DNA of 64,000 bases from a virus. Both the position numbers and the translations under genes were made by a program. Below are positions 1 to 64,000 of this stretch, piece after piece; position 1 is the first letter of the stretch; each line of letters begins with the position of its first letter. The stretch lies in IMG/VR virus record IMGVR_UViG_3300020416_000001, positions 107,757 through 171,756 of that record, one strand, 5' to 3'. The notes under the pieces are model-generated. The model saw only the letters and a program-made list of their open reading frames with translations, searched no databases and was not told the origin of the DNA.

Positions 1-726
1 GATAATATTACTGTCATAGATGAACCCACAGAAATAGAATACGGTGGTAAGAAGTTTATGTTCTTGCCGTGGATTTGTCCTGATGATAAAGAAAAATTTG
101 GCGACGCAGTTGATAAGTCTGATGCTGATGTTCTTCTCGGACATCTAGAACTAAATGGATTCGAAGCAATCCCAGGTCACGTGATGGAGCACGGAGAAGA
201 TCCTGCAAGGTATGAGAGGTTCCCTCTAGTTTGTACAGGTCACTATCATATGAAATCTAGGAGAGGTAATATCCAATACCTAGGAAACCCGTACCAACTC
301 TACTGGAATGATTACGGTCAGAGACGTGGATTCCACGTCCTAAATACTGATACGTTGAAGTTAACATTTATACAAAACAAATACGATATTTTTTGCAAAC
401 TTTACTACGACGATTCTAGGAATGATTACGATGACATTCCTGATCTCTCACAACTGAAAGGATCATTTGTTAAACTAATAGTACAGAACAGATCAAATCA
501 AAAATGGTTTGATCGAATGATCAAAGCAATTCAACAGGCAGACGTAGCAGATCTAAAGATCATTGAGGATCTGACACTGGATGCACCCGAGGTCAAAGAA
601 GATGTTAAGATGGAAGATACTATGAGTATCCTTGAAACTTACGTTATGGATCTTGAGGAAACTGTTGATAAGAAAAACGTCGTTAACATTCTGAAATCAC
701 TCTATGTCGAATCACTAAATCTTTAA
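1..726 (+). CDS. gp47: Recombination endonuclease subunit (Mre11/SbcD-like), 5'-truncated by window
   Basis: Frame open from base 1; phosphoesterase motifs LLGHLELNGF, TGHYH, YLGNPYQLYWND; upstream of gp46. Confidence 0.93.
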   Translation, partial: DNITVIDEPTEIEYGGKKFMFLPWICPDDKEKFGDAVDKSDADVLLGHLELNGFEAIPGHVMEHGEDPARYERFPLVCTGHYHMKSRRGNIQYLGNPYQLYWNDYGQRRGFHVLNTDTLKLTFIQNKYDIFCKLYYDDSRNDYDDIPDLSQLKGSFVKLIVQNRSNQKWFDRMIKAIQQADVADLKIIEDLTLDAPEVKEDVKMEDTMSILETYVMDLEETVDKKNVVNILKSLYVESLNL

Positions 727-995
727 TGTTCATTCTTACAGACGGAAAAACTGGTGGTGTCTATGCCGTAACTCCTAATGGGAAAAACGATCCCAAGGGT
801 CCTAAGGCAGTGCAAATTTTCGTTGACAAAGATGATGCGATACGCTATAATTTAATGCTAGAGGCAAACGATTATGATCGTAAACTAGACGTGCTTGAGG
901 TTGAGTTCGACCTCGTAGTACAGAACTGTCTAGCACATCGATATGACTACGTTATTGTTAAACCTGATCAAGTGGTGGTTCCTCCAACCGATTAA
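726..995 (+). CDS. Hypothetical protein between gp47 and gp46
   Basis: 89 aa ORF with TAATG coupling to gp47. Confidence 0.75.
   Translation: MFILTDGKTGGVYAVTPNGKNDPKGPKAVQIFVDKDDAIRYNLMLEANDYDRKLDVLEVEFDLVVQNCLAHRYDYVIVKPDQVVVPPTD
823..851 (+). promoter_or_regulatory. Sigma70-type promoter upstream of gp46
   Basis: TTGACA-17 nt-TATAAT, perfect consensus. Confidence 0.75.
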
Positions 996-997
996 TT

Positions 998-2716
998 ATG
1001 ATTGTATTTGAGAAACTTCGATGGAGAAATTTCTTATCAACAGGACAAAACTTCACTGAACTAGATCTCATCGACACATCCTCAACTCTTGTTGTGGGTA
1101 ATAACGGTGCAGGTAAGTCCACGATGTTGGATGCTTTGTGCTTTGGACTCTTCAATAGACCTTTCCGTAAGGTTTCCAAGTCACAACTTGTTAATACTAT
1201 TAATGAAAGAGATACGATTGTAGAAATAGATTTTAGTATTGGATCTGTATCGTACAAAGTTGTACGAGGAATGAAACCCAATGTCTTCGAAATCTGGAGG
1301 AATGGTTCCCTCGTCGATCAGGACGCAGCGAATAGAGACTATCAAAAATACTTGGAGCAGAGCATACTTAAACTTAACTTCAAGTCTTTCACTCAGGTTG
1401 TTATTCTTGGTAGTTCAACTTTTGTTCCTTTTATGCAGTTGTCTGCACCGCATAGAAGAGAGGTTATCGAAGATCTGTTGGACATCCAAATCTTCTCGCA
1501 GATGAATATGCTGCTGAAGGAGAGAGTAAAAGATAATAGAGAACAACTAAAAGAATGTGAGCATCAGTTACAACTTGCAGAACAAGCAATTACTTCTCAG
1601 AAGAGAACTGTTGATAAACTGTCTGCAGTAAATGATGAACGTATCAATAGACAGCAACAAAAATTTAAGGACAACGAAGATAGGATGTTGGTAATCAAAG
1701 AAGAGATTGCTATCATCGAACAGCGTGTCATCGGACTCAAGTCTATGCAAGAAGAGTTGATGAAGCACGAGAACCTTATGATGCAACAGAATAAGATCAA
1801 GGGCAAACTAGAAGACAAGAGTAAGAAGTTTGTCAAGGACAAAGCATTCTTTGAGACCAACTCAACCTGTCCTACTTGTTCTCAGGACATTGAAGAATCA
1901 TTTAGAAATATGAAGGTTTCTATCTATACTAAAAAGCACGATGATTTGCGTAGTGCAATTACAGAACTTGAAACACAGATTCAAGATACCCTAGAGATTA
2001 GTAGTAACATAAAGACTGAGACAGACAAGTTGTCTGAGGATCAGTTTGAGATCCGTCGTTTATATAATGAAGAAAAGAATCTGATGAAAGAGAACAGTGA
2101 GATCCTATCTCACGTACAGAAACTAAGCACACTGCCTGACATTACTAAGGAGAAAGAACAACTCAAAATATTCCAAGAAACTTATGATGAGCGAGAAGAG
2201 TCTTGTTCAAAAGTTACAAAAGAAACTTTGGATTATAAACTAGTAGGAACTCTCCTCAAGGATGGTGGTATCAAGGCAAAGATTATCTCAAAGTATATTC
2301 CTATCATCAACCAGAGAATCAATAAGTATCTGGGAGAGATGGACACCTTTGTCAATTTTACCCTTGACGAAGAATTCTCTGAGGTGATAAAATCTCGCCA
2401 TCGCGACAAGTTCTCCTATGCCTCATTCAGTGAGGGAGAGAAGCAGAAAATTGATCTGTCATTATTATTTACTTGGAGACACGTTGCGAAACTAAAAAAC
2501 TCTGTTGCTACTAATCTGCTCATCCTAGATGAGGTGTTTGATTCATCACTAGATAATCAAGCAACTGATGAACTCTTAAAAATTCTTAAGAGTTTAGGTA
2601 GCGAAACAAACTTCTTTGTTATCTCACACAAAGGTGAGGTTCTTGCAGACAAGTTTGAGAAACAAATCCGTTTCGAAAAGATCAACGGGTTCAGTAAATC
2701 CTTCACGTATGAGTAA
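998..2716 (+). CDS. gp46: Recombination ATPase subunit (Rad50/SbcC-like)
   Basis: Walker A GNNGAGKS, zinc hook CPTC, signature FSEGEK, Walker B LILDEVFD, coiled coil. Confidence 0.96.
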   Translation: MIVFEKLRWRNFLSTGQNFTELDLIDTSSTLVVGNNGAGKSTMLDALCFGLFNRPFRKVSKSQLVNTINERDTIVEIDFSIGSVSYKVVRGMKPNVFEIWRNGSLVDQDAANRDYQKYLEQSILKLNFKSFTQVVILGSSTFVPFMQLSAPHRREVIEDLLDIQIFSQMNMLLKERVKDNREQLKECEHQLQLAEQAITSQKRTVDKLSAVNDERINRQQQKFKDNEDRMLVIKEEIAIIEQRVIGLKSMQEELMKHENLMMQQNKIKGKLEDKSKKFVKDKAFFETNSTCPTCSQDIEESFRNMKVSIYTKKHDDLRSAITELETQIQDTLEISSNIKTETDKLSEDQFEIRRLYNEEKNLMKENSEILSHVQKLSTLPDITKEKEQLKIFQETYDEREESCSKVTKETLDYKLVGTLLKDGGIKAKIISKYIPIINQRINKYLGEMDTFVNFTLDEEFSEVIKSRHRDKFSYASFSEGEKQKIDLSLLFTWRHVAKLKNSVATNLLILDEVFDSSLDNQATDELLKILKSLGSETNFFVISHKGEVLADKFEKQIRFEKINGFSKSFTYE

Positions 2717-3294
2717 TGTTTAGTCATCCATTTTTTACCAATCCAGATGGGTATCCAAAGCACGCTGATTTGAAAGTAGATCTACTTGAATCACGTGACA
2801 AGATTATTCAAGACTTCAACATTTTCTATGGAACTGGGTACTCGACTGTTCATACTAACCCTAACTATCATCTGGTATATCCAGAGTTTGCAGATTGGGT
2901 TCTATCGAATATTGAACCTTTTGACCACGAACTCAAAATACACCAGATGTGGGTCAACGTTAATCCGCACGGCGGGTTTCAAATGCGTCACAACCACGCA
3001 GACGCAGATATGGCAGGCACCTACTATCTCAAGGTCCCACCAGGGGATACTGGGGATATTTTCTTCTATCATCCTAGCAACGCTGTCGATACGCTAAATA
3101 GAATTCAACCATACTGGAACTATACACACTGTCAGATTCCTAGAGAACGAGACTTGTATTTCTGGCCAGGTTATCAGGACCACGAAGTCCGACAAAATTA
3201 TGAGAATCAAGAACGATGGTCTATCAGTTTCACTCTGAAAATTCCACAGAAGATCCGAGAGATAAGATTTCCCAGTTTACCCAAGACTTCTTGA
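2716..3294 (+). CDS. Putative 2OG-Fe(II) oxygenase (HxH type)
   Basis: MWVNVN..HNH..GTYYL..FWPGYQDHEV..RWSISF pattern. Confidence 0.8.
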   Translation: MFSHPFFTNPDGYPKHADLKVDLLESRDKIIQDFNIFYGTGYSTVHTNPNYHLVYPEFADWVLSNIEPFDHELKIHQMWVNVNPHGGFQMRHNHADADMAGTYYLKVPPGDTGDIFFYHPSNAVDTLNRIQPYWNYTHCQIPRERDLYFWPGYQDHEVRQNYENQERWSISFTLKIPQKIREIRFPSLPKTS

Positions 3295-8984: not shown

Positions 8985-9922
8985 GTGATTTTCTTTGGTG
9001 CGAACAATATCGTCCTCGTAAGATTGACGATTGTATTTTGCCTGAGAATATCAAGAGTGTGCTAAGTAAGTTTGTAGAGTTAGGAGAGATTCCTAATCTT
9101 TTACTGTCTGGTCCTCCTGGTATTGGCAAGACCACAGTAGCGAAAGCATTGTGTGAACAACTAGAAGCAGATTATTATGTCATCAACGGATCAGACGAAG
9201 GAAGGTTCCTTGATACAGTCAGAAACAATGCAAAGAATTTTGCATCGACCGTATCTCTTACTTCAACATCTAAACACAAAGTCATCATCATTGATGAGGC
9301 AGATAACACAACCCCTGATGTTCAACTCCTCCTCAGGGCAAGCATTGAGGAGTTCAGTGGCAACTGTAGATTCATCTTCACTTGCAACTACAAAAACAAA
9401 ATCATCGCACCCCTCCATTCTCGCTGCTCAGTTGTTGACTTCTCCATCACAGGAAAGCAAAAGCAACAACTCGCAGCAGAGTTTTTCAAGCGTGTCCAGT
9501 CCATCCTTGAAGAACAAAAGGTCACTGCAGAACCTCGCGTTCTGGCAGCGTTAGTACAAAAGTATTTCCCTGATTTCAGACGAACTCTAAATGAACTCCA
9601 ACGTTATTCTTCCATTGGTAAGATTGACACTGGTGTTCTTGCTGCTGTATCTGATACTAAACTTGACGACCTAGTTACCTTCTTGAAGGGTAAAGAGTTT
9701 ACCAAGATGAAGAAGTGGGTAGTACAGAATCTTGATAACGAACCCACACAGATTATGAGGAATGTTTATGACAGTCTCTATACATATCTGGCACCTCAGT
9801 CTATTCCTGAGGCAGTCCTTTTAATCGGTGAGTATCAATACAAGTCTGCATTTGTTGCAGATCAGGAAATCAATCTTGTTGCATTCCTTACTGAACTAAT
9901 GATGAGGTGTCAATTCAAATGA
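8981..9922 (+). CDS. gp44: Clamp loader large subunit
   Basis: YRP, GPPGIGKT, IIIDEAD, LHSRC. Confidence 0.96.
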   Translation: MSDFLWCEQYRPRKIDDCILPENIKSVLSKFVELGEIPNLLLSGPPGIGKTTVAKALCEQLEADYYVINGSDEGRFLDTVRNNAKNFASTVSLTSTSKHKVIIIDEADNTTPDVQLLLRASIEEFSGNCRFIFTCNYKNKIIAPLHSRCSVVDFSITGKQKQQLAAEFFKRVQSILEEQKVTAEPRVLAALVQKYFPDFRRTLNELQRYSSIGKIDTGVLAAVSDTKLDDLVTFLKGKEFTKMKKWVVQNLDNEPTQIMRNVYDSLYTYLAPQSIPEAVLLIGEYQYKSAFVADQEINLVAFLTELMMRCQFK

Positions 9923-10503
9923 AGACTAGACCACGAGAGTATCACTTCGTAGATGCTCTGACTGATATTAGATCAGCAGTTTTGTTAATCGGACTCCACG
10001 GACCAAACCTTGTAGGTATGGAACTTGGGGTCTTTCGTGCAGAGAGTCATCTGACTATCCTGCAGAACTGTCCTAACGTGAAGAAGTTGTACGGTGTTGA
10101 TAACTGGAGACCATATACTGACTGGATGAATCCTAACGGTGATGGTCCACTCAACTCCACAACTGAAGCACAGATGGAAACACACGAGTGGATTGCTAAA
10201 CATCACATCAAGTGGTCTGGTGTAGCAGATCGTTCCGAACTTTGGAAGGGCAACACATCAGAACTACACGAAGAGGTGGATAACAATTCATTTGATTTTA
10301 TATTCTTTGATGCTTGGTTAGACTACGAACAAGTTAAACGTGAACTGACTGACTGGTATCCCAAACTTAAGAAGGGAGGTCTATGTATCGGTCACGATTA
10401 TAACGCTGAAGCAGTGAATGTTGGTGTAGCAGAGTTCAGAGACATAAATGATATTAACAAACATATGGCAACATATGATTCTATGTTCGCTTGGAGAAAA
10501 TGA
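9919..10503 (+). CDS. Class I SAM-dependent methyltransferase
   Basis: ELGVFRA, YGVDNW, FDFIFFDA, LKKGGLCIGHDY. Confidence 0.8.
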   Translation: MKTRPREYHFVDALTDIRSAVLLIGLHGPNLVGMELGVFRAESHLTILQNCPNVKKLYGVDNWRPYTDWMNPNGDGPLNSTTEAQMETHEWIAKHHIKWSGVADRSELWKGNTSELHEEVDNNSFDFIFFDAWLDYEQVKRELTDWYPKLKKGGLCIGHDYNAEAVNVGVAEFRDINDINKHMATYDSMFAWRK

Positions 10504-10583: not shown

Positions 10584-11260
10584 AGAAACACCACATCTTT
10601 CCTATCGAGATCTTCACCTTTGAACGACCTGATCTCGTAGATCCTGTATTGGATGCACTTGATCCTATTGATCGTGGTATGTTTAACTTCCCACATCCTG
10701 TACAGTCAACTAAAGGTAACCTTCACAATATTCCTTCATTCAAACCACTGGTTGATTGGATCGAGGAATGTATGGAAGAACTAAAGAAAGATCAAGAGTT
10801 TGAGATGTGGGGTAAGTTCGAAGTCTCTATGATGTGGGGCAACGTATCGATGCCTCGTAGCGAGGGTATGCATCAACCACACAGACACCCTCTTTCATAC
10901 TGGTCAGGTGTCTTCAATCTTACTGAAGGACACCCTACGCAGTTCCAAGACCCCTGTTGGGTCCGCTCGTACAATCAGATGGAAATAGTCTCATCAGCAT
11001 ATAAGAACGCTTGTAGCGCCCCTGAGTGGCGTCCTGGGACATTGGTGATCTGGCCAAGTTGGTTGGTCCACTTCTCAACACCGCACGTGGGTGAAGAATA
11101 CCGTGCAAACATTGCATTCAATGCAGTGCCGACTGGTCCTATTAACTTCGGTCCTTTCGGACAAAATATGGTCAACTGGAAGTTGATCAAAGACGACCCT
11201 ATTATGCATTCCGACCCAAATGAAAATAACAATGAAGAACACCAAGAAGGAAATGTTTGA
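10580..11260 (+). CDS. Putative 2OG-Fe(II) oxygenase
   Basis: MWGN..HQPHRH..WSGV..IWPSWLVH..RANIAFN. Confidence 0.8.
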   Translation: MKKHHIFPIEIFTFERPDLVDPVLDALDPIDRGMFNFPHPVQSTKGNLHNIPSFKPLVDWIEECMEELKKDQEFEMWGKFEVSMMWGNVSMPRSEGMHQPHRHPLSYWSGVFNLTEGHPTQFQDPCWVRSYNQMEIVSSAYKNACSAPEWRPGTLVIWPSWLVHFSTPHVGEEYRANIAFNAVPTGPINFGPFGQNMVNWKLIKDDPIMHSDPNENNNEEHQEGNV

Positions 11261-11351: not shown

Positions 11352-11528
11352 ATGAAAATCGACAGATACTATGATCCATACGAAGATCTTGAAAGAGAGA
11401 TCATTGCTGATCTAGAGTATGCAGCACAGAGAATTGGTGGTAAGATGGAAAGAATCACCCGAGTAGATTCTCGTGGTAGATCTTCCAAAGTGATTACTAT
11501 TGAATATGATGTTAACGAACCTGGGTGA
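11352..11528 (+). CDS. Small hypothetical protein (58 aa)
   Basis: MKIDRYYDPYEDLE...KVITIEYDVNEPG; fills the gap before dam. Confidence 0.6.
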   Translation: MKIDRYYDPYEDLEREIIADLEYAAQRIGGKMERITRVDSRGRSSKVITIEYDVNEPG

Positions 11529-11529
11529 A

Positions 11530-12369
11530 ATGAAATCTTATAAAACTCCGCTGCGCTATCCAGGTGGTAAGTCACGTGCAGCAGCGAAGTTATATCCTAA
11601 GTTTCCAAACAACATCAAAGAATACAGAGAACCATTCCTAGGGGGTGGTTCTATGGCAATCTATTTTTCAAAAGCAAATCCAGACACACCTGTATGGGTA
11701 AATGACACATACTATTACCTGTACAACTTTTGGATTCAACTCCAAGATCGTGGGTATGATCTGAGTGATACATTGATGGCACTCAAGAACGCTCACGATA
11801 CTAAGGAGAAAGCAAAAGATCTATTTCTCAAATGCAAGGCAGACATCGCCAACGTATCTGAGTTTCAACAAGCAATTTATTTCTACGTGCTTAATAAGTG
11901 TTCATTCTCTGGACTCACAGAGAACAGTTCATTTTCTAAGCAAGCATCTGTATCTAACTTCAGCAAGAAAGGAATCAAGAAACTTGCTCACTATCAACAG
12001 ATCATTGAGCATTGGGAGATTACCAATGTTGACTATAGTGAACTGATGACAGATGAAAAAGATGTATTCTCCTTCTTAGATCCTCCATACGACATTAAAG
12101 ATTTCTTGTATGGAACTAAAGGTGAAATGCACAAAGGATTTGATCATCACAGATTTGCAAAGGTATGCAAAGAAACTACACAGGACTGGATGATCACCTA
12201 TAATTCAAATGAGAACACTCGTGCTCTCTTCAGCGAGTATAATCAAGAAGAATGGGATCTCACATATACAATGAGATCTGTGGGCAACTACAACACCGAA
12301 CAATCCAAACGTAAAGAACTTCTCGTCACCAACTATGTCAAAGCACCACAAGGACTACCCTTTAACTGA
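11530..12369 (+). CDS. dam: DNA adenine methyltransferase (Dam/D12 class)
   Basis: PLRYPGGKSR, EPFLGGGS, VND, DPPY. Confidence 0.9.
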   Translation: MKSYKTPLRYPGGKSRAAAKLYPKFPNNIKEYREPFLGGGSMAIYFSKANPDTPVWVNDTYYYLYNFWIQLQDRGYDLSDTLMALKNAHDTKEKAKDLFLKCKADIANVSEFQQAIYFYVLNKCSFSGLTENSSFSKQASVSNFSKKGIKKLAHYQQIIEHWEITNVDYSELMTDEKDVFSFLDPPYDIKDFLYGTKGEMHKGFDHHRFAKVCKETTQDWMITYNSNENTRALFSEYNQEEWDLTYTMRSVGNYNTEQSKRKELLVTNYVKAPQGLPFN

Positions 12370-12745: not shown

Positions 12746-13157
12746 GATCGAGATTTCTTGGTCCCCCGATATGATGGTAGAGGTTAGTCTCAAGCAACCT
12801 GATGACTTTCTCAAAGTCAGAGAGACTCTTACTAGGATCGGTGTAGCATCGAGAAAAGAAAAGAAATTATTTCAGAGTTGTCATATTCTTCATAAGAAGG
12901 GCAAGTATTATATTGTCCACTTCAAGGAGTTGTTTGCGTTGGATGGAAAGCACGCGAACCTAACTTCTAATGACGTAGAACGTCGTAACAGAATTACAAA
13001 ACTCCTATCAGATTGGGGACTTGTAGGTATTGTTGATGAGGAGATCGGTGAACTTGCACCGTTGAATCAGATCAAAGTTATTTCATATAAGGATAAGGGT
13101 GAGTGGATCCTAGAATCGAAGTATAATATAGGTAAGAAACGTACAGTCTCAGAATAG
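12735..13157 (+). CDS. regA: Translational repressor RegA
   Basis: DDFLKVRETLTRIGVAS, QSCHILHKKGKYYIVHFKELFALDG. Confidence 0.96.
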   Translation: MAGEIEISWSPDMMVEVSLKQPDDFLKVRETLTRIGVASRKEKKLFQSCHILHKKGKYYIVHFKELFALDGKHANLTSNDVERRNRITKLLSDWGLVGIVDEEIGELAPLNQIKVISYKDKGEWILESKYNIGKKRTVSE

Positions 13158-13164
13158 ATAAATA
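13158..13164 (+). promoter_or_regulatory. T4-type late promoter
   Basis: ATAAATA about 22 nt before ATG 13187. Confidence 0.65.
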
Positions 13165-13186
13165 GGTCAGCAATCCATTCAGCACT

Positions 13187-13627
13187 ATGTCTGAGGAGAA
13201 GAAAACACCTCCTAAATCTGAAGAAAAACCAAAAGGTTTCTTCGGTCGTTTGAAGGAAGCATCTGAGGACAAAGAGGAACAACTGGCGATTCTCAGTACA
13301 TTCGTGAGACTCGGCATTCTCATTTGGAGCGGAGGGATCCTGACGTTAGCGTACGTTGATCTTCCCAAAGCACTAAATTTTCCCGAACAAGACCTCGATC
13401 CAACTTTCATAGCTAGCGTTTTCACGGGCGTTTTAGCTACATTTGGCGTCCAGACTGCCAAGAAGAATGGTAATGGAAATACCAATGGTAGTGTAGGTAT
13501 TACAAAGGCAGATATGGAGAGACTCATCGAAGCAGCAGCACAAAGTGCACCTGCTCAAGTCATCCGTGTTGAACAAGCACCTTTGAAAATTACTACCGAT
13601 GATAACCCTAAAAAGTATGATCTCTAA
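13187..13627 (+). CDS. Two-TM membrane protein
   Basis: Hydrophobic segments LGILIWSGGILTLAYV and FIASVFTGVLATFGV. Confidence 0.75.
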   Translation: MSEEKKTPPKSEEKPKGFFGRLKEASEDKEEQLAILSTFVRLGILIWSGGILTLAYVDLPKALNFPEQDLDPTFIASVFTGVLATFGVQTAKKNGNGNTNGSVGITKADMERLIEAAAQSAPAQVIRVEQAPLKITTDDNPKKYDL

Positions 13628-13629
13628 TT

Positions 13630-13860
13630 ATGCAAAAAATTATTAACGTTCTGGTTGTATTCAACTTCCTATTCGCAGGTACTGTTACAGGTACTTTCGT
13701 ATATACGTGGTTCAATCGTGAAACACTCGCTGAACAATCAAGAGAAAGACTTGCATCATTTGTTGCGGAAGCAGTCGGCAGTATGGTCCCAGGTCTTGTA
13801 GATAAAGGACTTCCTGATGTTACTGGTCCTGCAATTCCACCTATCGGTCTACCAAAATGA
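13630..13860 (+). CDS. Small N-anchored membrane protein
   Basis: N-terminal TM, Pro-rich tail. Confidence 0.7.
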   Translation: MQKIINVLVVFNFLFAGTVTGTFVYTWFNRETLAEQSRERLASFVAEAVGSMVPGLVDKGLPDVTGPAIPPIGLPK

Positions 13861-14393
13861 AATGGTTTTACGCTACTGCAGGTGTACTCTTAGGTGTATC
13901 ACACCTTGGGATGATCGGCATCATAGCGAATAAACAAACCTTTCCACATCTCAACCCACCTGTAGGTCCTTATAGTTCCTACAGTGCTGAGGTTGGTAGA
14001 GAAGGATATAAGATCAATTATCAAGGAAATGATCCAAAGGTAATGTCGGAAGACATTTACGTTAATAAGAGTGGTTTCTTTGGTAATAAATCTATCGTCA
14101 CAAAATCTCACGAGTACACTATGGATGGCATCAGGCATCTAGGAGGTGAAGGCGTGGGAAAGTTGACTGCCAAAAAACTAGAATGTATCAAGGCGGAAGG
14201 TGGTGGAGAACAAACGGGCGCTGTGATCGGCGCTAGTGTAGGAACCGCTGCTGCCCCTGCTCTATCAGGCATTCCATTTATAGGTCCAGTCCTAGCAGGA
14301 GGCATTGCACTCTTTGCAGGTAACAAGGGAGCAAATGTAGGTGGAGAAATCGCTGTCGCAATGGCAGACTGTGAAGAAGAATTAATTGACTGA
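13857..14393 (+). CDS. Membrane protein with C-terminal glycine zipper
   Basis: N-terminal TM; GAVIGASVG...GGIALFAGNKGANVGG. Confidence 0.72.
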   Translation: MKWFYATAGVLLGVSHLGMIGIIANKQTFPHLNPPVGPYSSYSAEVGREGYKINYQGNDPKVMSEDIYVNKSGFFGNKSIVTKSHEYTMDGIRHLGGEGVGKLTAKKLECIKAEGGGEQTGAVIGASVGTAAAPALSGIPFIGPVLAGGIALFAGNKGANVGGEIAVAMADCEEELID

Positions 14394-14396
14394 TGA

Positions 14397-15179
14397 ATGG
14401 AAATCCCAGAGATCGGAACGAACGATATTAATATTCGTTCCTTGAACATACCTGAGATCCGATCTTATAGTTGGATCGAATCTATACCAAAAGCGATACC
14501 GATCTACCCACCTGTCACTCAAGAGTTAGGTACACCGATCATCAATATCCCAGGTTGTGTAGAAGCACACGAACTTGATGATGGTAAGAATGAAAACCTA
14601 AAGTCAGATGACCCGAAGGGAGCGAAGGTGTATTGTGATGCTGCATTGCCTTCGTTCTCCCCTATCGAGTACAACAAAGAGAAATTACAGTTCCAGTTGC
14701 CTGCTGTAGAGGCACCTAAGTTTGAGAATGAATCACCAGACCTTTCTGTACCAGAGACAAAGGTACCAAAGGTTGACTCACCTGAGTGTCCTACAAGGGC
14801 ACAGGTATTAAAAAACCCCATAGGAAAGATCCTAGAGGGTAATAAAAAGATTGTTGCTTACGAGTTGGTAGGCAAAGAATGTATTGAAGTTACAGAGAAA
14901 TTAAATATCACTGATCAAATTATTCAAAACATCCCTTCCCCTGGTTTGATAGTTACTACAGGTTCTATTGCTGCTGTTGCTGCCACCTCTGCGTTGCTCG
15001 CAAAACCGCTTGCCGATCTTCTTCTGAAAATTGTGAAACCTGCTGTGAAGAAGACGATTGGGAAGATTGGATCTCTGTTTGGACGGGTTCCGAAACGCCA
15101 ATCTCAAAAGGACCGCCAAGATCTGCAGCGTTTGAGGACACGGGCACTTCGAGAGTTGAAGAGGATGAAGAAGAGATAG
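14397..15179 (+). CDS. Pro/Cys-containing protein with C-terminal TM and basic tail
   Basis: 260 aa ORF; IVTTGSIAAVAATSALLA followed by an Arg/Lys-rich end. Confidence 0.72.
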   Translation: MEIPEIGTNDINIRSLNIPEIRSYSWIESIPKAIPIYPPVTQELGTPIINIPGCVEAHELDDGKNENLKSDDPKGAKVYCDAALPSFSPIEYNKEKLQFQLPAVEAPKFENESPDLSVPETKVPKVDSPECPTRAQVLKNPIGKILEGNKKIVAYELVGKECIEVTEKLNITDQIIQNIPSPGLIVTTGSIAAVAATSALLAKPLADLLLKIVKPAVKKTIGKIGSLFGRVPKRQSQKDRQDLQRLRTRALRELKRMKKR

Positions 15180-16014
15180 GTTTAGAATTACTATGCACGT
15201 GTGGTTTGATATAGTTCACACCCTGTACCACAACGTCTGCACATACACTATAGTATGGTGACTTTGGATGGAAGGTGATTCCCGCTTTCATAAGTTCACC
15301 ACAGTTTTTTAATCTCGCGATCTCAAAGTCTAATCTCTTGTTTGCAGTCAACTGACGTTGCATATTTAGTTGGGTTTGGACTGCCTCTTTACATTGTTGT
15401 TGTGCCTTCTTATCGAGAGGTATAGACCACGTAGCAGATACACCGATGGATAGGTTATATGTATCTTTCTGTCCCGTTCTTACAGGAATTTGATATAACA
15501 CTGACCCAGGATTGTCAGGTGCACCGTCTCCTATTTGATTACCATCGTCATCTGTTGTACCTGTTAGGTCACGCATATCATATACATTATCAAACCATTC
15601 ACCTTCAAATGGTTTCTGTCCAGATGCACTACCTGTTGCATATGGTGTGATGTTAAGTGTACTACCTTGACACTGAATACCACCACCGTAAGTGTTAGTT
15701 ATATACGGACCTTGTAAAACTTGTATTGCCTGATTAGTCACGCTACCACTGGAGTTTGCGATGGGCGCTGCAGTTGCAGATACACCACCAACAGTCTCAG
15801 CATTGACTACTTGAGGGGATAAGATTGATAAGGCAAGTGCCCCTATTGTTGGAAGATTGAGGTTGTGTCTGTGACGCTTGTAACCTCTGTTACCCTCTGG
15901 ATTATTGTTTGATTTTGAAGTCCAGGTCCAGAGTAAGTTTCTGTAAATTGAAATGCGGATCCCACATTGTTCTGGGTCCAGTTTGGTTTGTTGTTGATGT
16001 TTAATCCTGTCCAT
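14965..16014 (-). CDS. Exported or outer-membrane protein; true start uncertain
   Basis: Signal-like segment ending VVNA|ETVGG; beta-strand GVSATWSIPLD followed by a long helix; four Cys. Confidence 0.7.
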   Translation of the reverse strand: MDRIKHQQQTKLDPEQCGIRISIYRNLLWTWTSKSNNNPEGNRGYKRHRHNLNLPTIGALALSILSPQVVNAETVGGVSATAAPIANSSGSVTNQAIQVLQGPYITNTYGGGIQCQGSTLNITPYATGSASGQKPFEGEWFDNVYDMRDLTGTTDDDGNQIGDGAPDNPGSVLYQIPVRTGQKDTYNLSIGVSATWSIPLDKKAQQQCKEAVQTQLNMQRQLTANKRLDFEIARLKNCGELMKAGITFHPKSPYYSVCADVVVQGVNYIKPHVHSNSKPISSSSSSTLEVPVSSNAADLGGPFEIGVSEPVQTEIQSSQSSSSQQVSQFSEEDRQAVLRATQRWQQQQQ

Positions 16015-16304
16015 TTTGAAGTCACGCCATCAATAGTTTGAGATTGTTCACTTACACCTGGTGTCATAGATGCACCATCGTGTTTTACGTTTGTACCAGA
16101 AACGGAATACACCCAACCCGTAGCATAGTCCATCGAATTTATCGTCTCAGTTACCTTGGAAGTCGTTTCCGTGTGGCTCGTCATACTTCCCTGAGTGAAA
16201 TTTGGCACCACGGGCACTGCGAGAACAGGTGCAGTAGAATTGACTACGAGTGCACCTGTTGCAATACACGTTACGATCTTTCCAAAAGGGATGTTCACGT
16301 ACAT
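15843..16304 (-). CDS. Exported Thr/Ser-rich protein
   Basis: Signal peptide ending VLA|VPVVPNF. Confidence 0.75.
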   Translation of the reverse strand: MYVNIPFGKIVTCIATGALVVNSTAPVLAVPVVPNFTQGSMTSHTETTSKVTETINSMDYATGWVYSVSGTNVKHDGASMTPGVSEQSQTIDGVTSKWTGLNINNKPNWTQNNVGSAFQFTETYSGPGLQNQTIIQRVTEVTSVTDTTSIFQQ

Positions 16305-16310
16305 TCTCCA

Positions 16311-16811: not shown

Positions 16812-16842
16812 TCTTCTAGAAATACAAAGTTATAACTAAGCC

Positions 16843-16849
16843 TATTTAG
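16843..16849 (-). promoter_or_regulatory. Late promoter for the minus-strand three-gene operon
   Basis: CTAAATA on the minus strand about 30 nt before ATG 16811. Confidence 0.6.
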
Positions 16850-46635: not shown

Positions 46636-49600
46636 ACGAAACTGTGACCCGTCAGATGTAGAGCAACAGGAAGAAGTTGTTCAGTCTGGTGGTGGAAATA
46701 CAGGTTCTCCCAGTGGTGGTTCAGCACCTAATACTCTTGCTGCTGCAGTAGAGACACTACTTGGTCAGTGTTATGGAGACCAAGGAACATTAACTAAGGA
46801 TAACTTTCCTGATCTGGAGGTGGAACCTCTACCCCCACCACAGTATATTAATTGGGGACCTATCCTTGACACTATTCTAGGTACTGGATCTGATGTACCT
46901 GACACTAGAGATATACAAGTAGATTTTGATATTGGACGAGACGAAGACGGTGGTGATGTATGTTTCTCACCTGACGGTACGACCAATGAATCTAGGGAGA
47001 CTGTAGATTGTGATAAAGGAACTCAACCTGAGATAGAAAAGTGTATCCAGAATCATTTGGACTGTTTCTTCAGACCTTATGTTGGTGGTGCTTGGAAACC
47101 TCCTCAGGCAGACTGTGAATCATTTGTGCCTGCAGCAATGTATGGTACAACAAATAAGATATGTGTCAGAAACTGTGTGACAAAGAGAGACCCCATCTAT
47201 CTGATGAAGAAGGGAATGTCTGGAACTGGTTCTGCTATATTCAATGGTCCTAATACACTGACTGTAACTGGTAACGTATCACAAACTATCAGTTTAGAAT
47301 TCCAATGGGATGATAATCCTAGGACAGCAGGTACTGCAGTAGATCAGATTACTGTAGGTGGTACTACATTTACTAGGAGTGGAGAGAAAGGAAAACAAAC
47401 AGAGGTACTTACACTTGGTGCAGGAGATTACTCTATACAGTATCAAGGTCTGTCAGGTTCTGGATACCAGATTGATAACAATGCAGGGTATGGTACAAAC
47501 AAATCCATTATGTACAAAGACAATGATGGTAACGATGCCAACGCTAGATTCTCTATCCTAGGTAACAATAATCTAGGTAGAGATCATCGCTATGGAACAA
47601 GTGATATACCTGATGCAGGATACCAACTGGCAGGTGCTGCTTGGTTTGCAAACCTCCTACCCTCTGAGACATCGCGCAGTGTGCCTGTGTACAGGACGTT
47701 CTCTGCTTCAGCACAAGACACTATGCTGACGTCAAACATCACTGGAGAGGCAGGTGACCTTGACGCAGGCGGTTACCAACCACGTGATGAGGTCTTGTTC
47801 TATGGGTATAGAGAGGCAGAAGATATGACATCCGAACTGATGGAGGGTGAGGAACCTGCACCACTCTATCGTTACTATAGTTTTGCAGGACAAGATCATA
47901 AGTATTCTATTGAACCACTTGGTAATGTAGCGAACGCACCAAATCTTCAGAACAATATCTTTAGGTTTGAAACCCAGGCAGAAAGTGCACTTAAGATTCA
48001 ACTTACTTGCCGACGTGGTAGTGCAGCATATGATAATGCTTTTGGATGGTATGTTACAGATGAAAACAATGTGCCTATTGCAGGTAGAGTTCTGTTAGCA
48101 AATGTGACTGACGCATCTGGAACATTCCATAGGAAGATTGATAAGGATCTAATCAATTCTTATATGCCTTGCAACCTTGGGTTCTTTATGATTCCTGATG
48201 GTGGTTCTAATGGTGCATCTGATAATCAAGACGTCACATTCTCAGCACACAACAATCAGTTTGGTGATGGGTACACAAACAATCAGGGCATCGGTACACA
48301 CTCTAGTCAGAAAAATTATGTGTACTTCTCAGACAGAAGATTAAACCCTCAAAAGAAGGATATGACTAAGTGGCCAGATAATATTTGGCAATATTGGGAG
48401 GACTTATTTGCAGGTGATGATGACTATAACGATGTTCGTATATCATATCGTGTAGGTTATGGTGATAGTGAATATTACTATGAAGGTATCGAGTGTTATG
48501 TGTTCTCTCGACCTGCACAACCTGTGTTCGCAAACATCGAGGTGAATGATGACTGTGAAAAGAAAGCATTCCGTAAAGGATCATTTGTTGATGCAACTCT
48601 TACACGTACAGAGTGTGGTTCATATCACGAACATCCTAAGACAGGTGCTGACACGTGGGACTGTGGTAAATGTACTGGACATTATGCGAACAGTAAGAAC
48701 AGAGTACAGAAAGTAAAGATCGCACGTGATGCAACGTTTACTATCAGATCGCACGGTGGAATGACTGCAGGGTATGGTGACTGTACTAAGTTCACTTGGA
48801 AACTCAAGGTAAATGGCAACACAATCTACACAGAGCAGTCATTGGTATCTGAATGGAGACAGATTGGTTCAGTGTTGCATACCTTTAATGTAGAGAAGGG
48901 TGACAACTTGGTGTTCAAGATCGAGAGCATCGATGCAGGACATTACAACGGTAAAGTTTCACCTGCATTTGCTATTAGAGATGAAGGCACTGGTGATTAC
49001 ATAAACACGTGGACAGTCAATCTACTCACACAATCTCACAACTATCAGACTGAGAGCAGAGATCAGGCAGAGGGTCAACCACAATCAGGTCCTGAGATTA
49101 CTGAACCTTGTGGTTTGCCTATCAGTGGTGACTTGTGGTGTTGGGAGAAATCTCCAGACGATGATGACTTCCCAGTCAAAACAGACTACACAACTGTCAT
49201 CACTAACAGAGTTGTGAATCAGTCAGCAGTCCTTCCTTTAGATGCTTACGACAAAGCAGCAGCAAGGATCAGGGTTATTAATGGTAAAGATGTATATTCT
49301 ATGTCAGATAATGACACAGGGTTCGTTGATGTCGTTGCGAAGAATGGATTCTCACTTAGACTCAAGTACACAGTGATCGAGGCAGAGAATGCTTACGTTG
49401 ACTGGTCTGTTGATAGTGTTGAAGACTGGGGTAGTGGTGGTTTTAGATTGAATGAAGAGATTGATTTGATCTTTGACGATCAAGATGAATTTTTTGACGA
49501 GCAAGATGAAGACTGGAGTGGTCCTACTCATTCCAAGTTAGGATTCAGAGTGACTGCAATCAACGAGGACCAGTGTCAAGCAGTGACTGAAACACAGGGT

Positions 49601-50257
49601 ATGGTTCAAGACCTTGCTCTTGGTAGTTACTCTGACATCACAGTCCCTAGACAACCTGAGCAACTGGTGGTTAACAACCGTAGTGTCACTGGTGCAGAGT
49701 ACATAGTTAATATGAATGAGATCTTCCAGAGTTTCTTCCTGTATGACAACGGTAATGCCACATCATTCCACCAGTATTGGTTAGAACAACAAACTCTAGG
49801 GAACGATGTTGTGTTTAATACCGACTACTATGACGACACTGACAAAGGATTGTTCTTCAGATTGAAGATCAGAGTTACACGTCAGGGTCAACATAACTCT
49901 GGAGACACATATAAGTTTGACAGATATGGATGGTTCGGTAACGTAAGCATATCAAATGTGTATAGTTACGGTAAGAGATACGAGAAGGAAGATGTTATGA
50001 ATATTCAATGGCCACCAAGGGAGTTACAATTCTCCACTGGTGATAGACCATCATCACCATACTTCCCCAGTCAAAAGAACCTACCAAAGAAAGTTCTTGT
50101 GAAGGATGCAACGACCGCTAGATATAAACGTAACGCTAGGATGGCACTGTTCCAACAAATGCACGACAAAACAAGCAACCTGTGGTATAGTAATAGGACG
50201 CTTTATCAACCCACACAGATAAGGCAATTTAACATTATAATAAAGGATACTGACTGA
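46607..50257 (+). CDS. Large virion structural protein (1216 aa)
   Basis: Late promoter CTAAATA 46577; beta-rich; WEDL..DDDYNDV (DUF4114-like) and PVYR/PLYRYY repeats. Confidence 0.8.
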   Translation: MAVGNNHWFERNCDPSDVEQQEEVVQSGGGNTGSPSGGSAPNTLAAAVETLLGQCYGDQGTLTKDNFPDLEVEPLPPPQYINWGPILDTILGTGSDVPDTRDIQVDFDIGRDEDGGDVCFSPDGTTNESRETVDCDKGTQPEIEKCIQNHLDCFFRPYVGGAWKPPQADCESFVPAAMYGTTNKICVRNCVTKRDPIYLMKKGMSGTGSAIFNGPNTLTVTGNVSQTISLEFQWDDNPRTAGTAVDQITVGGTTFTRSGEKGKQTEVLTLGAGDYSIQYQGLSGSGYQIDNNAGYGTNKSIMYKDNDGNDANARFSILGNNNLGRDHRYGTSDIPDAGYQLAGAAWFANLLPSETSRSVPVYRTFSASAQDTMLTSNITGEAGDLDAGGYQPRDEVLFYGYREAEDMTSELMEGEEPAPLYRYYSFAGQDHKYSIEPLGNVANAPNLQNNIFRFETQAESALKIQLTCRRGSAAYDNAFGWYVTDENNVPIAGRVLLANVTDASGTFHRKIDKDLINSYMPCNLGFFMIPDGGSNGASDNQDVTFSAHNNQFGDGYTNNQGIGTHSSQKNYVYFSDRRLNPQKKDMTKWPDNIWQYWEDLFAGDDDYNDVRISYRVGYGDSEYYYEGIECYVFSRPAQPVFANIEVNDDCEKKAFRKGSFVDATLTRTECGSYHEHPKTGADTWDCGKCTGHYANSKNRVQKVKIARDATFTIRSHGGMTAGYGDCTKFTWKLKVNGNTIYTEQSLVSEWRQIGSVLHTFNVEKGDNLVFKIESIDAGHYNGKVSPAFAIRDEGTGDYINTWTVNLLTQSHNYQTESRDQAEGQPQSGPEITEPCGLPISGDLWCWEKSPDDDDFPVKTDYTTVITNRVVNQSAVLPLDAYDKAAARIRVINGKDVYSMSDNDTGFVDVVAKNGFSLRLKYTVIEAENAYVDWSVDSVEDWGSGGFRLNEEIDLIFDDQDEFFDEQDEDWSGPTHSKLGFRVTAINEDQCQAVTETQGMVQDLALGSYSDITVPRQPEQLVVNNRSVTGAEYIVNMNEIFQSFFLYDNGNATSFHQYWLEQQTLGNDVVFNTDYYDDTDKGLFFRLKIRVTRQGQHNSGDTYKFDRYGWFGNVSISNVYSYGKRYEKEDVMNIQWPPRELQFSTGDRPSSPYFPSQKNLPKKVLVKDATTARYKRNARMALFQQMHDKTSNLWYSNRTLYQPTQIRQFNIIIKDTD

Positions 50258-58229: not shown

Positions 58230-59245
58230 TAGTATCCGCCTCCATAATATCCACCGCCACCACCATAGTATCCTCCACCTGAGGAACTAGATCCTGAGGA
58301 ACTACTTGAACCACTGCTGCTACTGCTACTGCTACTACTGCTAGAGGATGAAGAAGAAGATGTGTTATCAACATCACCACTACCAGTCTGAGTTCCAGTG
58401 TATGATGTGTCTCCACTGCTTGTTGTGCTACCTGTAGATGATTCACCAGTAGATACTGTTACAGTCTCCTCAGTTGCAGTAGAAGATGCTGATGAAGAAG
58501 TGCCACCACCAGATGCAATGAGTGCTGTAGATGATCCACCACCACGTGCTGAACCAGTTGATGCTGTGCTCTGACTTGGTTTCCTGTAGTTTGTAATACC
58601 AATGAACTCCTCTGCCAATGTGGTAGGGGTTTTTTTGTTGCCATTGACATCAACTTCATCGCTAGGTAAGTATTTGCACAATCTTCTGAACTCATTGATA
58701 AAATCATCCACGTAAGCACCACGTAGTAAATGTATGTTACGTTTATATTCATTCTCTTCGTCCATCTTCTGAAAATAACTGATGGGTGAGCGAGACATAT
58801 TCTTGGGCATTAAAGTACCGTCTGCTTTTACATACTGATAACTCTCATTGACCTCGATACCCTCAGGCATAATAATATTATCGTTCTGATCTCTAATCTC
58901 TTTGGTTTCGTAGTGACTGATTGCATCAGCAGTACCATACTTGTCAGTGCATACCTTGAACATCTCATCCCTTGTCAAGGGCCATTCGTTGTTCACATTG
59001 ATAATGTTGTTGCACAGTAAAACAATCCAGTCCAAACCAGAATCACCATACACTTTCTTGGCAATCATATCTGGACGTTCACCTTCCTTGATAGAATACT
59101 GTGTGAACCCTAGCAGTTGACCGACAACTTTATCTCTGATCTTGATACGACGAAAGATATTGACAGTCAGTTCATAAGGATGCGTTCCATTTAAGAACGT
59201 TCTATTTCTAACGAAGACGTTAGGTAGGTACTTGAAGTATGCCAT
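58229..59245 (-). CDS. gp53: Baseplate wedge protein with Ser/Gly-rich tail
   Basis: YFKYLPN, NIFRR, GERPDMIA..YGD, WIVLLCNNI..EWP, ENEYKRNI. Confidence 0.88.
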   Translation of the reverse strand: MAYFKYLPNVFVRNRTFLNGTHPYELTVNIFRRIKIRDKVVGQLLGFTQYSIKEGERPDMIAKKVYGDSGLDWIVLLCNNIINVNNEWPLTRDEMFKVCTDKYGTADAISHYETKEIRDQNDNIIMPEGIEVNESYQYVKADGTLMPKNMSRSPISYFQKMDEENEYKRNIHLLRGAYVDDFINEFRRLCKYLPSDEVDVNGNKKTPTTLAEEFIGITNYRKPSQSTASTGSARGGGSSTALIASGGGTSSSASSTATEETVTVSTGESSTGSTTSSGDTSYTGTQTGSGDVDNTSSSSSSSSSSSSSSSSGSSSSSGSSSSGGGYYGGGGGYYGGGY

Positions 59246-61972: not shown

Positions 61973-62677
61973 ATGCCTTTACCTAAACTGAGCATTCCAG
62001 ATTATGAATGCGTTCTTCCTCGTGGTCAGAAGGTTACTTACAGACCATTCCTAGTAAGAGAAGAGAAACTTCTTTACCTTGCTATGGAGACACAGGACAA
62101 CAAGGAAATGATCAAAGCGGTGAAAGAGATCATCAAAGCGTGTACTAACATCAAGAAACTTGATGACCTTGCTACATTTGATATTGAATATCTGTTCCTT
62201 AAAATCCGTGGTAAATCTGTAGGTGAGGTGAGTGAATTTAAGATCACTTGTCCAGACGATGAGAAGACACAGGTTGATGTCGAGGTAAATCTTGATGAAG
62301 TACAGGTACAGATCCCTAAAGATCATACCCCAATCCTCAAGGTTAGCGATGACGTCACAATCACTATGAAATATCCTTCATTGGATGTGTTTGTGAAAAA
62401 TAATCTAACTGATAACCCAGGTGTAGACGATCTATTCAAACTTGCTGCTAGTTGTACTGAAAGTATTGCTGAAGGCGAGGATGTATATGAAGGAAAAGAT
62501 CATACAACTAAGGAACTAGTTGAATTCTATGAAAATATGAACTCACAACAGTTTCAATTAGTTCAGAAGTTCTTTGAAACTATGCCTAAACTGTCACATA
62601 CGATTGAAGTTTTCAATCCTAAGACAGAAGTTACATCACCTATCGTTCTCGAAGGACTCGCATCTTTTTTCGCGTAG
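61973..62677 (+). CDS. gp26: Baseplate hub assembly protein
   Basis: MPLPKL, YRPFLVREEK, FDIEYLFLKIRGKS, FFETMPKL, EGLASFF; late promoter CTAAATA 61939. Confidence 0.9.
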   Translation: MPLPKLSIPDYECVLPRGQKVTYRPFLVREEKLLYLAMETQDNKEMIKAVKEIIKACTNIKKLDDLATFDIEYLFLKIRGKSVGEVSEFKITCPDDEKTQVDVEVNLDEVQVQIPKDHTPILKVSDDVTITMKYPSLDVFVKNNLTDNPGVDDLFKLAASCTESIAEGEDVYEGKDHTTKELVEFYENMNSQQFQLVQKFFETMPKLSHTIEVFNPKTEVTSPIVLEGLASFFA

Positions 62678-62697
62678 CCCTAGCGCACGACTCCTTG

Positions 62698-62871
62698 ATG
62701 AATATGTTTGAGACTAATTTTGCTTTGATGCAACATCATAAGTATAGTCTCACTGAACTTGAAAATATGATGCCGTGGGAACGAGATGTTTATGTGAACC
62801 TTCTTATTCGCTACTTACGTGAAGAGGAAGCAAGACAACGCCAACAGGCGGGACAACATCAATCACTTTAA
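62698..62871 (+). CDS. gp51: Baseplate hub assembly catalyst; possibly expressed by frameshift from gp26
   Basis: TNFALMQHHKYSLTELENMMPWERDVYV. Confidence 0.85.
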   Translation: MNMFETNFALMQHHKYSLTELENMMPWERDVYVNLLIRYLREEEARQRQQAGQHQSL

Positions 62872-64000
62872 TGGCAAAATCAGCACCCAAGTTAAAGATA
62901 AGAAACTTTCTTCCAGTTAGTACCGCAGGTATTGACAAGATGGATCCTGCTCACTCGTTGACTACAGCAGTCAACAGACTTGGTGATACTGTTACTGATC
63001 TAGGCAAAATAATTGTCAACACACATCAAGCGAGGTTGGATGCTGCATTTGCAGTGCAGGGAAGAAAATCCCTTGCACAAGACAGGGCGAGAGAAGCAAA
63101 GATAGAAAAGAAAACATCAGAAGAGATTGATAATGAAGGTAAGAAGAGAGGCATAGGAAGATTTGGAAGTGGACTGTTTGGTTTCCTAACACCACTACTA
63201 GAACCGTTGCTCAAGTTTGCAGCAACTATAGGTACGTTCTTCGCACTTGACTTCCTATCGAAGAAAGAAAATAGGGAGATGATAACTAAAGCATTTACTT
63301 GGATCAGTAAATGGTTAGGACTGGTGTGGAAGACGGCATCGTTTGGATTCAATCTTATATACGACGGGTTGTTTGACCCAGATGGTAATGACGGACCCAT
63401 AATCAGGGTGCTAAAAGTTATAGGGGGTATCGCTGCGCTCAAGGTCGCGAGTAGGATTTTAATGCCCTGGAAGTTAGCAGGTGATATAGGAAAACTGTCT
63501 AAACTATTCAGAGGTAACAGAAAGAGTAGTGTAAGGCAGCAGCAAGTGAAGATGGATAAAGAACGCTTCTTTAGAGGTAAGAGAGATCCCAAAGGAGTTC
63601 GTTCTGGAAGAACATCTAAGTTAGCAAGGCAGAGATATGCCAGAAGATTTGGTGGTAATGCTGCTAGAAATAGATTTGCAGGAAGGATAGCAGGAAGAGG
63701 ATCATTCAAAGGAATGACTGGTATGGGTCGTTTTATGCGATCTGGTGTTGGTGGAGGTATATTTGCAGGTGCACTTTCATTTGGATCACGACTCGCTGCA
63801 GGTGATAAGATGAATGTTGCAGCAGGTGGAGGTATTGGTGCCACTATTGGTACAGTTGCTACTACTGCACTTCTAACACCAGTTCTAGGACCTTTTGCAC
63901 CTATTGTTGGTGGTATCTTGGGTGGATTTATTGGAGATAAGATTGGAGCATTCATTGGAGAGGCAATAGAACCTGTGCTTGCTCCTCTTGGTGATTTCTT
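62871..64000 (+). CDS. Baseplate hub / tape-measure-like protein, 3'-truncated by window
   Basis: Open frame from ATG 62871 (MAKSAPKLKIRNF..) to the window end; helical, Gly/Ala-rich hydrophobic repeats; follows gp26/gp51. Confidence 0.75.
   Translation, partial: MAKSAPKLKIRNFLPVSTAGIDKMDPAHSLTTAVNRLGDTVTDLGKIIVNTHQARLDAAFAVQGRKSLAQDRAREAKIEKKTSEEIDNEGKKRGIGRFGSGLFGFLTPLLEPLLKFAATIGTFFALDFLSKKENREMITKAFTWISKWLGLVWKTASFGFNLIYDGLFDPDGNDGPIIRVLKVIGGIAALKVASRILMPWKLAGDIGKLSKLFRGNRKSSVRQQQVKMDKERFFRGKRDPKGVRSGRTSKLARQRYARRFGGNAARNRFAGRIAGRGSFKGMTGMGRFMRSGVGGGIFAGALSFGSRLAAGDKMNVAAGGGIGATIGTVATTALLTPVLGPFAPIVGGILGGFIGDKIGAFIGEAIEPVLAPLGDF

Follow-up and report, generated by a model that had tools for sequence, protein, structure and literature searches.

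By what process does a phage genome come to lack, down to the last copy, short palindromic sequences that should occur in it by the hundreds? The question is raised by a stretch of 64,000 nucleotides, hereafter called the window, which corresponds to positions 107,757-171,756 of the IMG/VR virus record IMGVR_UViG_3300020416_000001, i.e., the final part of a 171,756-bp viral record with a completeness of 94% (CheckV), and in which the tetranucleotides CATG, CCGG and RGCY are absent or nearly so. With genes for the gp43 polymerase, gp41 helicase, gp44, gp45, gp46, NrdA, psbA and the baseplate, this record is that of a T4-like cyanomyovirus, whose closest named phages in the phage record collection share only ~75% DNA identity with it; its GC content is 41.7% and 189 of its 199 called genes lie on one strand. 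Positions given hereafter are those of the window, unless preceded by the word genome or attributed to another record.

The codon-aware null model consisted of shuffles of synonymous codons within genes, 200 of them genome-wide, and counts are presented as observed/expected; for the window, expectations were also drawn from zero-order (base composition) and maximal-order Markov models. Over the whole genome, CATG stands at 0/295, the lowest of the 200 shuffles holding 264 copies, CCGG at 0/140 and RGCY at 40/1081, which corresponds to codon-aware observed-to-expected ratios (O/E) of 0.00, 0.00 and 0.037, respectively, none of the shuffles coming near the observed counts. In the window, there is no CATG for 237 expected by the zero-order model, 243 by the maximal-order Markov model and 134 by the synonymous shuffle, no CCGG for 121, 35 and 48, and 13 RGCY for ~930, ~290 and 421, the zero-order and Markov expectations being 237 and 131 for AGCT, 339 and 130 for AGCC plus GGCT, and 121 and 32 for GGCC. 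An initial annotation, made by eye, had listed these 13 sites and the two absences against an expectation of hundreds; the exhaustive count returned exactly the same list, codon shuffling of the window gave expectations of that order (134 CATG and 421 RGCY), and the genome-wide codon-aware O/E, on which the claim had been staked, is nowhere near 1. The motifs had been named after the enzymes CviJI (RGCY), NlaIII (CATG) and HpaII (CCGG), which is correct as a description; these names describe the motifs and are no evidence that those enzymes take part. The tetramer GATC, which had been called abundant, is not avoided, being mildly above the codon-aware expectation in the genome (941/802) as in the window (365 observed, 315 by synonymous shuffle); its abundance is genuine with respect to base composition (O/E 1.54) but fades when codon usage is taken into account (1.17 by shuffle and 0.88 by Markov).

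The purge reaches around 20 further motifs, which had escaped the first reading. Genome-wide, CCAGC/GCTGG is down to 2/184 (O/E 0.011) and GCSGC to 1/53 (O/E 0.019). Twelve hexamer palindromes are purged, eleven of them to zero with 10-77 copies expected, namely GATATC (0/76), CAATTG (0/71), TTTAAA (0/50), AGTACT (0/47), GTATAC (0/26), TACGTA (0/26), CTCGAG (0/21), GTCGAC (0/17), CGATCG (0/16.5), AGCGCT (0/12) and TGCGCA (0/10), the twelfth, GCTAGC, being near zero (1/12). Interrupted or longer motifs are also concerned, i.e., TCCNGGA (0/32), GACNNNGTC (0/25) and CCANNNNNTGG (1/32). With the sole exception of CCAGC, all purged motifs, degenerate and interrupted ones included, are palindromic or symmetric, which is the form of Type II sites. 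Among other candidates, gapped motifs of the AGCNGCT type were rejected as by-products of the RGCY purge, and AATTNAGC and CCGNAAAA were dropped as borderline after multiple testing. For the window, the purge reads as follows:

1..64000, no strand assigned: motifs at zero, i.e., CATG, CCGG, CCAGC/GCTGG, GCSGC, GATATC, AGTACT, TTTAAA, GTATAC, CAATTG
1..64000, no strand assigned: motifs at zero, continued, i.e., TACGTA, CGATCG, CTCGAG, GTCGAC, AGCGCT, TGCGCA, TCCNGGA, GACNNNGTC
1..64000: leftovers, i.e., 13 RGCY, one GCTAGC and one CCANNNNNTGG

The sites were removed by synonymous codon changes under protein constraint, and the survivors are mostly forced by the protein. After a purine, alanine is encoded by GCA (948) or GCG (178) in 1126 of 1137 cases, with 10 GCT and a single GCC, when after a pyrimidine the codons are GCT (1039), GCA (1027), GCC (177) and GCG (131). 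Before a G, histidine is written CAC 228 times and CAT never, none of the 844 codons preceding a methionine ends in C, and leucine after tryptophan is TTA (21), TTG (11) or CTC (1). As such, the codon contexts pointed out in the initial annotation, i.e., GCA/GCG for alanine after a purine, TGG-TTR for Trp-Leu, and TTC CAT ATG for the FHM of psbA, are borne out. At the sites present in six marine relatives that have CATG, the fraction of cases where both amino acids are kept is 0.27-0.39 for CATG and 0.38-0.46 for RGCY, with a background of 0.32-0.34, so that residues are retained no less often than at codon pairs in general; in the comparison with the freshwater phage S-CRM01, all three values are lower. 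The retention of amino acids at recoded positions and the context-dependent choice of codons thus identify the purge as synonymous recoding under protein constraint, which in effect rules out a sequencing artefact and, taken with the exact zeros and the loss of AT-only TTTAAA and AT-rich CAATTG, a deamination-type decay as well.

Regarding the survivors, 17 of the 19 GGCC sites in the genome are in-frame TGG-CCN junctions encoding Trp-Pro, a context without synonymous escape, and so are seven of the eight in the window, as the initial annotation had it. Selection at the amino-acid level was considered separately, and the deficit of Trp-Pro dipeptides (16 for 24.5 expected) is too weak to claim it. 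The residual RGCY sites of the window are distributed as follows:

3164..3167, + strand: GGCC, Trp-Pro TGG-CCA in the open reading frame (ORF) 2716-3294
11052..11055, + strand: GGCC, Trp-Pro TGG-CCA
32216..32219, + strand: GGCC, start codon ATG-GCC of a head protein gene (phrog_613), the only avoidable GGCC of the window
39504..39507, + strand: GGCC, Trp-Pro TGG-CCT
46096..46099, + strand: GGCC, Trp-Pro TGG-CCA inside psbA, which also begins the only CCANNNNNTGG of the window (46098)
48372..48375, + strand: GGCC, Trp-Pro TGG-CCA
50010..50013, + strand: GGCC, Trp-Pro TGG-CCA
58980..58983, - strand: GGCC, Trp-Pro TGG-CCC in a gp53-like gene
62676..62679, + strand: AGCC, between two tail genes
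13157..16850, no strand assigned: module of membrane/secreted proteins, with AGCT at 13411 and 13435, GGCT at 16175, AGCC at 16839 and the only GCTAGC (13412)

The module at 13157-16850 represents 5.8% of the window but holds four of its five non-GGCC RGCY sites, and it may be a weakly purged or recently imported patch. More generally, residual forbidden sites tend to cluster, positions 13,411-13,435 comprising two AGCT and the only GCTAGC of the window. Elsewhere in the genome, the 9-bp CGCGGCTGG at genome 68722-68730 combines GCSGC, GGCT and GCTGG, and a CCAGCT at genome 55,842 combines CCAGC and AGCT; the two CCAGC sites left in the genome thus each overlap an RGCY site that has also survived.

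The purge was then placed in the context of relatives, for which were profiled 80 viral contigs found via NrdA, 63 found via the Dam-family protein of the window, five named cyanomyoviruses and nine long or complete viral contigs, the Dam-family gene being located as follows:

11506..12369, + strand: Dam-family (D12 class) N6-adenine DNA methyltransferase (PF02086, 112 bits), no other DNA methyltransferase being recognisable in the genome

Every complete relative has its own distinct set of purged sites, e.g., CCGG, GCGC and ATCGAT in P-HM2 and in the viral genome G003, CCGG, GCATGC and GTGCAC in Syn9, or CCGG, GCGC, CGCG and GGTACC in P-SSM2. Five motifs, namely CTCGAG, GTCGAC, AGCGCT, TGCGCA and GACNNNGTC, are at or near zero in 12 of 12 genomes of the Kyanoviridae, freshwater S-CRM01 included, and constitute a family-wide core of avoided sites. 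The loss of CCGG is widespread, with zero or one copy in the named marine isolates P-HM2, Syn9, S-PM2 and P-SSM2 and an O/E below 0.1 in 23 of the 39 testable sequences; one cyanomyovirus clade retains this motif (22/23, 15/20 and 12/15 in contigs L074, L040 and L057, respectively). CATG is purged in a single clade, whose members have a Dam at least 64% identical to that of the present phage, the loss of CCAGC is limited to this phage and its sisters, and the near-complete RGCY purge, also common to these sisters, arose separately in three NrdA clades. Overall, the purge patterns are nested by Dam identity.

The turnover is best seen against the 187-kb sister genome G161, of which 158 kb align at 85.8% identity. 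Only one of 38 aligned GCSGC sites of the sister survives in the present genome, when the control GCWGC survives at 206 of 289 (71%), and none of its aligned CGATCG (0/9) or TCCNGGA (0/6) does; these three motifs are purged in this genome alone, beyond the set of its sister. The residual RGCY sites are mostly common to both (32 of 43). As for gene content, the two genomes are separated by only 12 ORFs of 49-95 amino acids and by no gene of at least 100 amino acids. In G161 itself, all 12 CATG and all three GTATAC sites fall in segments without alignment to the present genome, and forbidden sites may mark recently acquired DNA there. Nesting, convergence and rapid turnover of the purge sets are what an arms race with changing nucleases predicts. 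The strong selection proposed in the initial annotation is therefore upheld as selection at the DNA level on restriction-type sites, which moreover differs between close relatives; the part of the proposal that invoked a cost of the own methylases of the phage is not, in view of the methylase complement described below.

A search of the 171,756-bp genome for cytosine methylases returned neither PF00145 nor PF01555, which removes the basis for a cost of methylation by an own enzyme of that kind. The Dam-family protein scores 93.5 bits for TIGR00571, under the cut-off of 114.85, and has 7m6b and DpnM (2dpm) as closest solved structures; its gene sits at a conserved location, between those for the clamp loader and regA. 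Another methyltransferase gene lies nearby:

9919..10503, + strand: class I S-adenosylmethionine (SAM) methyltransferase (Methyltransf_24, TylF-like), between the gp44 clamp loader and Dam genes

For the latter, tblastn found no homologue in eight complete relatives, and this gene is relevant only as part of a variable methyltransferase slot; a TIGR02466-family protein is encoded next to it (10580-11260). Concerning the suggestion that GATC is protected by the encoded Dam, the gene is indeed present, but retention of GATC does not follow it across relatives. Among 50 viral loci bearing a homologue of this Dam, 21 have a GATC O/E below 0.5, many of them below 0.15, and S-CRM01 has no tblastn homologue (E<=1e-5) yet a normal GATC count (890/971). 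It is plausible that Dam protects GATC in the clade of the present phage, its GATC specificity being putative. In a distinct clade of viral contigs, L324-L350 (GC ~0.37), with Dam homologues 52-55% identical, GATC is strongly purged (6/88, 3/45) and so is CATG (6/69, 12/88); the presence of a Dam-family gene gives no protection of GATC there, possibly on account of a methyl-dependent nuclease or of another methylase specificity. In S-CRM01, a C5 DNA methylase and a second methyltransferase (115080-116917 of that genome, L248) occupy the slot where marine relatives have Dam, and neither CCGG (290/272) nor GGCC (383/271) is avoided; of the five named cyanomyoviruses searched, S-CRM01 alone carries a C5 methylase, and this single case suggests that phages respond to one and the same pressure either by methylation or by purging.

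Candidate nucleases were looked for on the host side in an even sample of 151 host-family genomes. In host-type DNA (Synechococcus, Prochlorococcus and Cyanobium), all motifs occur at about their expected density, with about one RGCY per 35 bp in Synechococcus DNA of 59% GC. C5 methylases are present in 15 of the 151 genomes (10%) and N4/N6 methylases in 31-35, a few genomes having 10-18 matches each. XhoI-family endonucleases (CTCGAG) are found in nine genomes, one intact gene adjoining a gene with a TaqI-like C-terminal specificity domain that is probably its methylase, and an EcoRV-family enzyme (GATATC) in one. By homology, enzyme families corresponding to at least two purged hexamers thus exist in the host pan-genome, at low frequency. 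Another of the XhoI-family loci is a decaying restriction system, the gene being broken by the insertion of a DDE transposase (host genome G087, 15646-17859, L266). On the phage side, the genes common to marine relatives and absent from S-CRM01 were screened, namely those for Dam, an SNase-like nuclease, a 2OG-Fe oxygenase, YHYH, DUF3310, DUF1825, a tail fibre, a head protein and unknowns; no site-specific nuclease was found among them, not every ORF having been scanned. One product is a candidate host-DNA-degrading enzyme:

genome 91006-91467 (L247): SNase-like endonuclease (PF00565, phrog_452), mean identity of 79% in at least six of seven marine relatives, absent from S-CRM01

Through synonymous changes, selection on the DNA itself has cleared the genome of sequences recognised by no fewer than ~20 sequence-specific nucleases. 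The explanation we favour, with a probability of about 0.68, is multi-specificity restriction-site avoidance driven mostly by rare host Type II systems met by a generalist phage. The agents would mostly be Type II restriction-modification systems, each found in only a few of the strains of marine picocyanobacteria, i.e., of Synechococcus, Prochlorococcus and Cyanobium. T4-like cyanophages enter many non-host cells, where resistance is intracellular, when specialists are stopped at the surface (PMC6708340). By injecting their DNA into many strains, such generalists would face the union of the restriction systems, and the very large size of the phage population would mean that a nuclease encountered in well under 1% of infections suffices to hold a site count at zero; on a rough estimate, a per-site cost of ~1e-4 could be enough for a tetramer, so that a host frequency below ~2% would still be ample. 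Motifs would have been added successively along the lineage, starting with CTCGAG and a few hexamers family-wide, then CCGG in most marine members, later CATG in this clade, RGCY and CCAGC with the sisters, and finally GCSGC, CGATCG and TCCNGGA in this genome alone. The identity of the nucleases can be proposed for two hexamers, through the XhoI and EcoRV families.

Several observations weigh against this explanation. The three tetramer-level purges have no matching host enzyme among the 151 host-family genomes, where no endonuclease of the HpaII, MspI or HaeIII families was found (for HaeIII and MspI, the controls gave no match either), and methylase-bearing host genomes show no depletion of their own CCGG, GGCC, AGCT or CATG. 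To our knowledge, RGCY-specific endonucleases are known only from chloroviruses. In most marine relatives, the depletion of RGCY is partial (O/E 0.2-0.5), which is awkward for an all-or-none restriction. The phage is a metagenomic one, the enzyme survey being at the level of the host family. Podoviruses and siphoviruses isolated on these or comparable hosts show no purge of the three tetramers, CCGG, RGCY and CATG being at expected levels in P-SSP7 (on Prochlorococcus MED4), Syn5 (on WH8109), P60, P-SS2 and S-CBS2, when P-HM2, presumably isolated on MED4 as was the podovirus P-SSP7, has no CCGG at all. This last difference fits the entry of T4-like cyanophages into many cells and their intracellular arrest (PMC6708340). 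Of their own, podoviruses have small avoidance sets, P-SSP7 retaining CCGG and AGCT but having 6/41 GGCC and 0/18 CGACG.

With the purge confined to T4-like phages, its cause could also be sought within the family itself, for instance in phage nucleases degrading host DNA. According to this alternative, marine T4-like cyanophages would encode or package frequent cutters, CCGG- and RGCY-like and, in this clade, CATG-like, that shred the host chromosome, rich in sites, as a source of nucleotides, their own DNA being told from that of the host by sequence alone and made immune through recoded sites instead of methylation. In its favour, the loss of CCGG and RGCY is characteristic of T4-like phages and not of podoviruses and siphoviruses of the same hosts, host DNA is full of such sites, the HpaII, MspI and HaeIII families are missing from the host-family sample, where C5 methylases reach only 10%, and a conserved SNase-like gene is shared by at least six of seven marine relatives and absent from the non-purging S-CRM01. 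SNase-family enzymes are nonetheless not sequence-specific, no site-specific candidate was found in the screen described above, and ~20 specificities are too many for phage-encoded enzymes; besides, only 12 ORFs of 49-95 amino acids distinguish this phage from its sister, yet GCSGC, CGATCG and TCCNGGA are purged in addition, and the clade of L074, L040 and L057 has kept CCGG. Self-avoidance is for these reasons unlikely. An escape from Type IV restriction, where McrBC- or Mrr-like enzymes of the next host would attack sites methylated in the previous one by its matching methylase, is decidedly unlikely too: two rare events are needed in succession, from which weaker selection than under plain restriction is expected, and the purge of hexamers that match the XhoI and EcoRV restriction families of hosts is left unexplained, even if the patchiness of methylases (10-23% of host-family genomes) and the purge of GATC in one Dam-bearing viral clade (6/88, 3/45), which would fit a methyl-GATC-dependent nuclease, go in its direction.

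Non-selective origins fare less well. Erosion of the sites by cytosine methylation and deamination, or more broadly a cost of the own methylases without any selection against cutting, would leave the constrained Trp-Pro sites in place just as selection does; it is however very improbable in a genome with no cytosine methylase, at counts (0 of 295 and 0 of 140 expected) far under any mutation equilibrium, with replacements that are any available synonymous codon (GCY to GCA after a purine) instead of C-to-T products, and with AT-only TTTAAA and AT-rich CAATTG purged as well. In addition, known CATG methylases modify adenine, which does not deaminate to mispair. The genome being a metagenome-assembled viral record, an artefact of assembly or sequencing chemistry, or mere chance, has also to be envisaged, but is barely conceivable when independently sequenced isolates (P-HM2, Syn9, S-PM2 and P-SSM2) exhibit a purge of this kind too, the contigs of sister phages in other metagenomes share the purged set, reading frames are intact with amino acids conserved at recoded positions, and none of 200 shuffles comes near the observed counts.

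Under multi-specificity restriction-site avoidance, a purge so large and so fast implies that the most abundant phages of the ocean are under major pressure from sequence-specific nucleases. In marine picocyanobacteria, known intracellular defences are reported for only about one strain in four (PMC6708340). With such a proportion and methylases in 10-23% of genomes, so strong a nuclease pressure is surprising. The set of missing sites would then be a record of the nucleases a lineage has met, which could link uncultured cyanophages to host populations, and it predicts specificities to be found in picocyanobacteria, i.e., CCGG, CATG, CCAGC and a CviJI-like RGCY activity outside chloroviruses, the literature covered having nothing relevant on CviJI/RGCY activity in bacteria. 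On a practical note, the missing sites tell with which restriction enzymes these phage DNAs cannot be digested. Set against podoviruses and siphoviruses of the same hosts and against the methylase-bearing S-CRM01, the phage provides a testable picture of alternative anti-restriction strategies.

How does this phage compare with known systems? Among classic cases of site avoidance are the GATC-free Staphylococcus phage K and the cyanophages of Anabaena and Nostoc that lack the sites of the enzymes of their hosts. Avoidance of restriction sites in phage genomes has been surveyed by Rusinov et al. (2018; PMC6286503). As in known phage site avoidance, short palindromes are here under-represented through selection with the protein sequence preserved; the present case differs in that two tetramers are wholly absent from a 172-kb genome, where RGCY is down to 4% and ~20 more motifs are purged, in that purge sets are nested and turn over between genomes 86% identical, and in that the tetramers have no known cognate host enzyme. 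No report of such purges in marine T4-like cyanophages was found in the literature, older subscription papers being outside the coverage. With respect to the restriction-modification of chloroviruses, RGCY (R.CviJI) and CATG (R.CviAII) are two of the three main motifs avoided here, both groups comprise large DNA viruses that infect aquatic phototrophs, and infection entails degradation of the host DNA in both; chloroviruses, however, encode a nuclease together with the protective methylation, whereas this phage has no cytosine methylase, yielded no recognisable restriction enzyme among the ORFs scanned, and is simply without the sites. With respect to anti-restriction by methylation, i.e., the Dam of T4/T2 or the C5 methylase of S-CRM01, it shares a Dam-family gene in the slot from clamp loader to regA, but methylation would cover at most one adenine motif, the rest being dealt with by site loss. 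Should self-avoidance be true after all, these phages would have an equivalent, free of methylation, to the restriction systems of chloroviruses and to the T4 strategy, since T4 protects its own DNA by hydroxymethylcytosine and chloroviruses theirs by methylation, when here protection would come from the absent sites. As it stands, the phage is a striking case of a known phenomenon, restriction-site avoidance, unusual in its depth, its breadth and its visible evolutionary dynamics.

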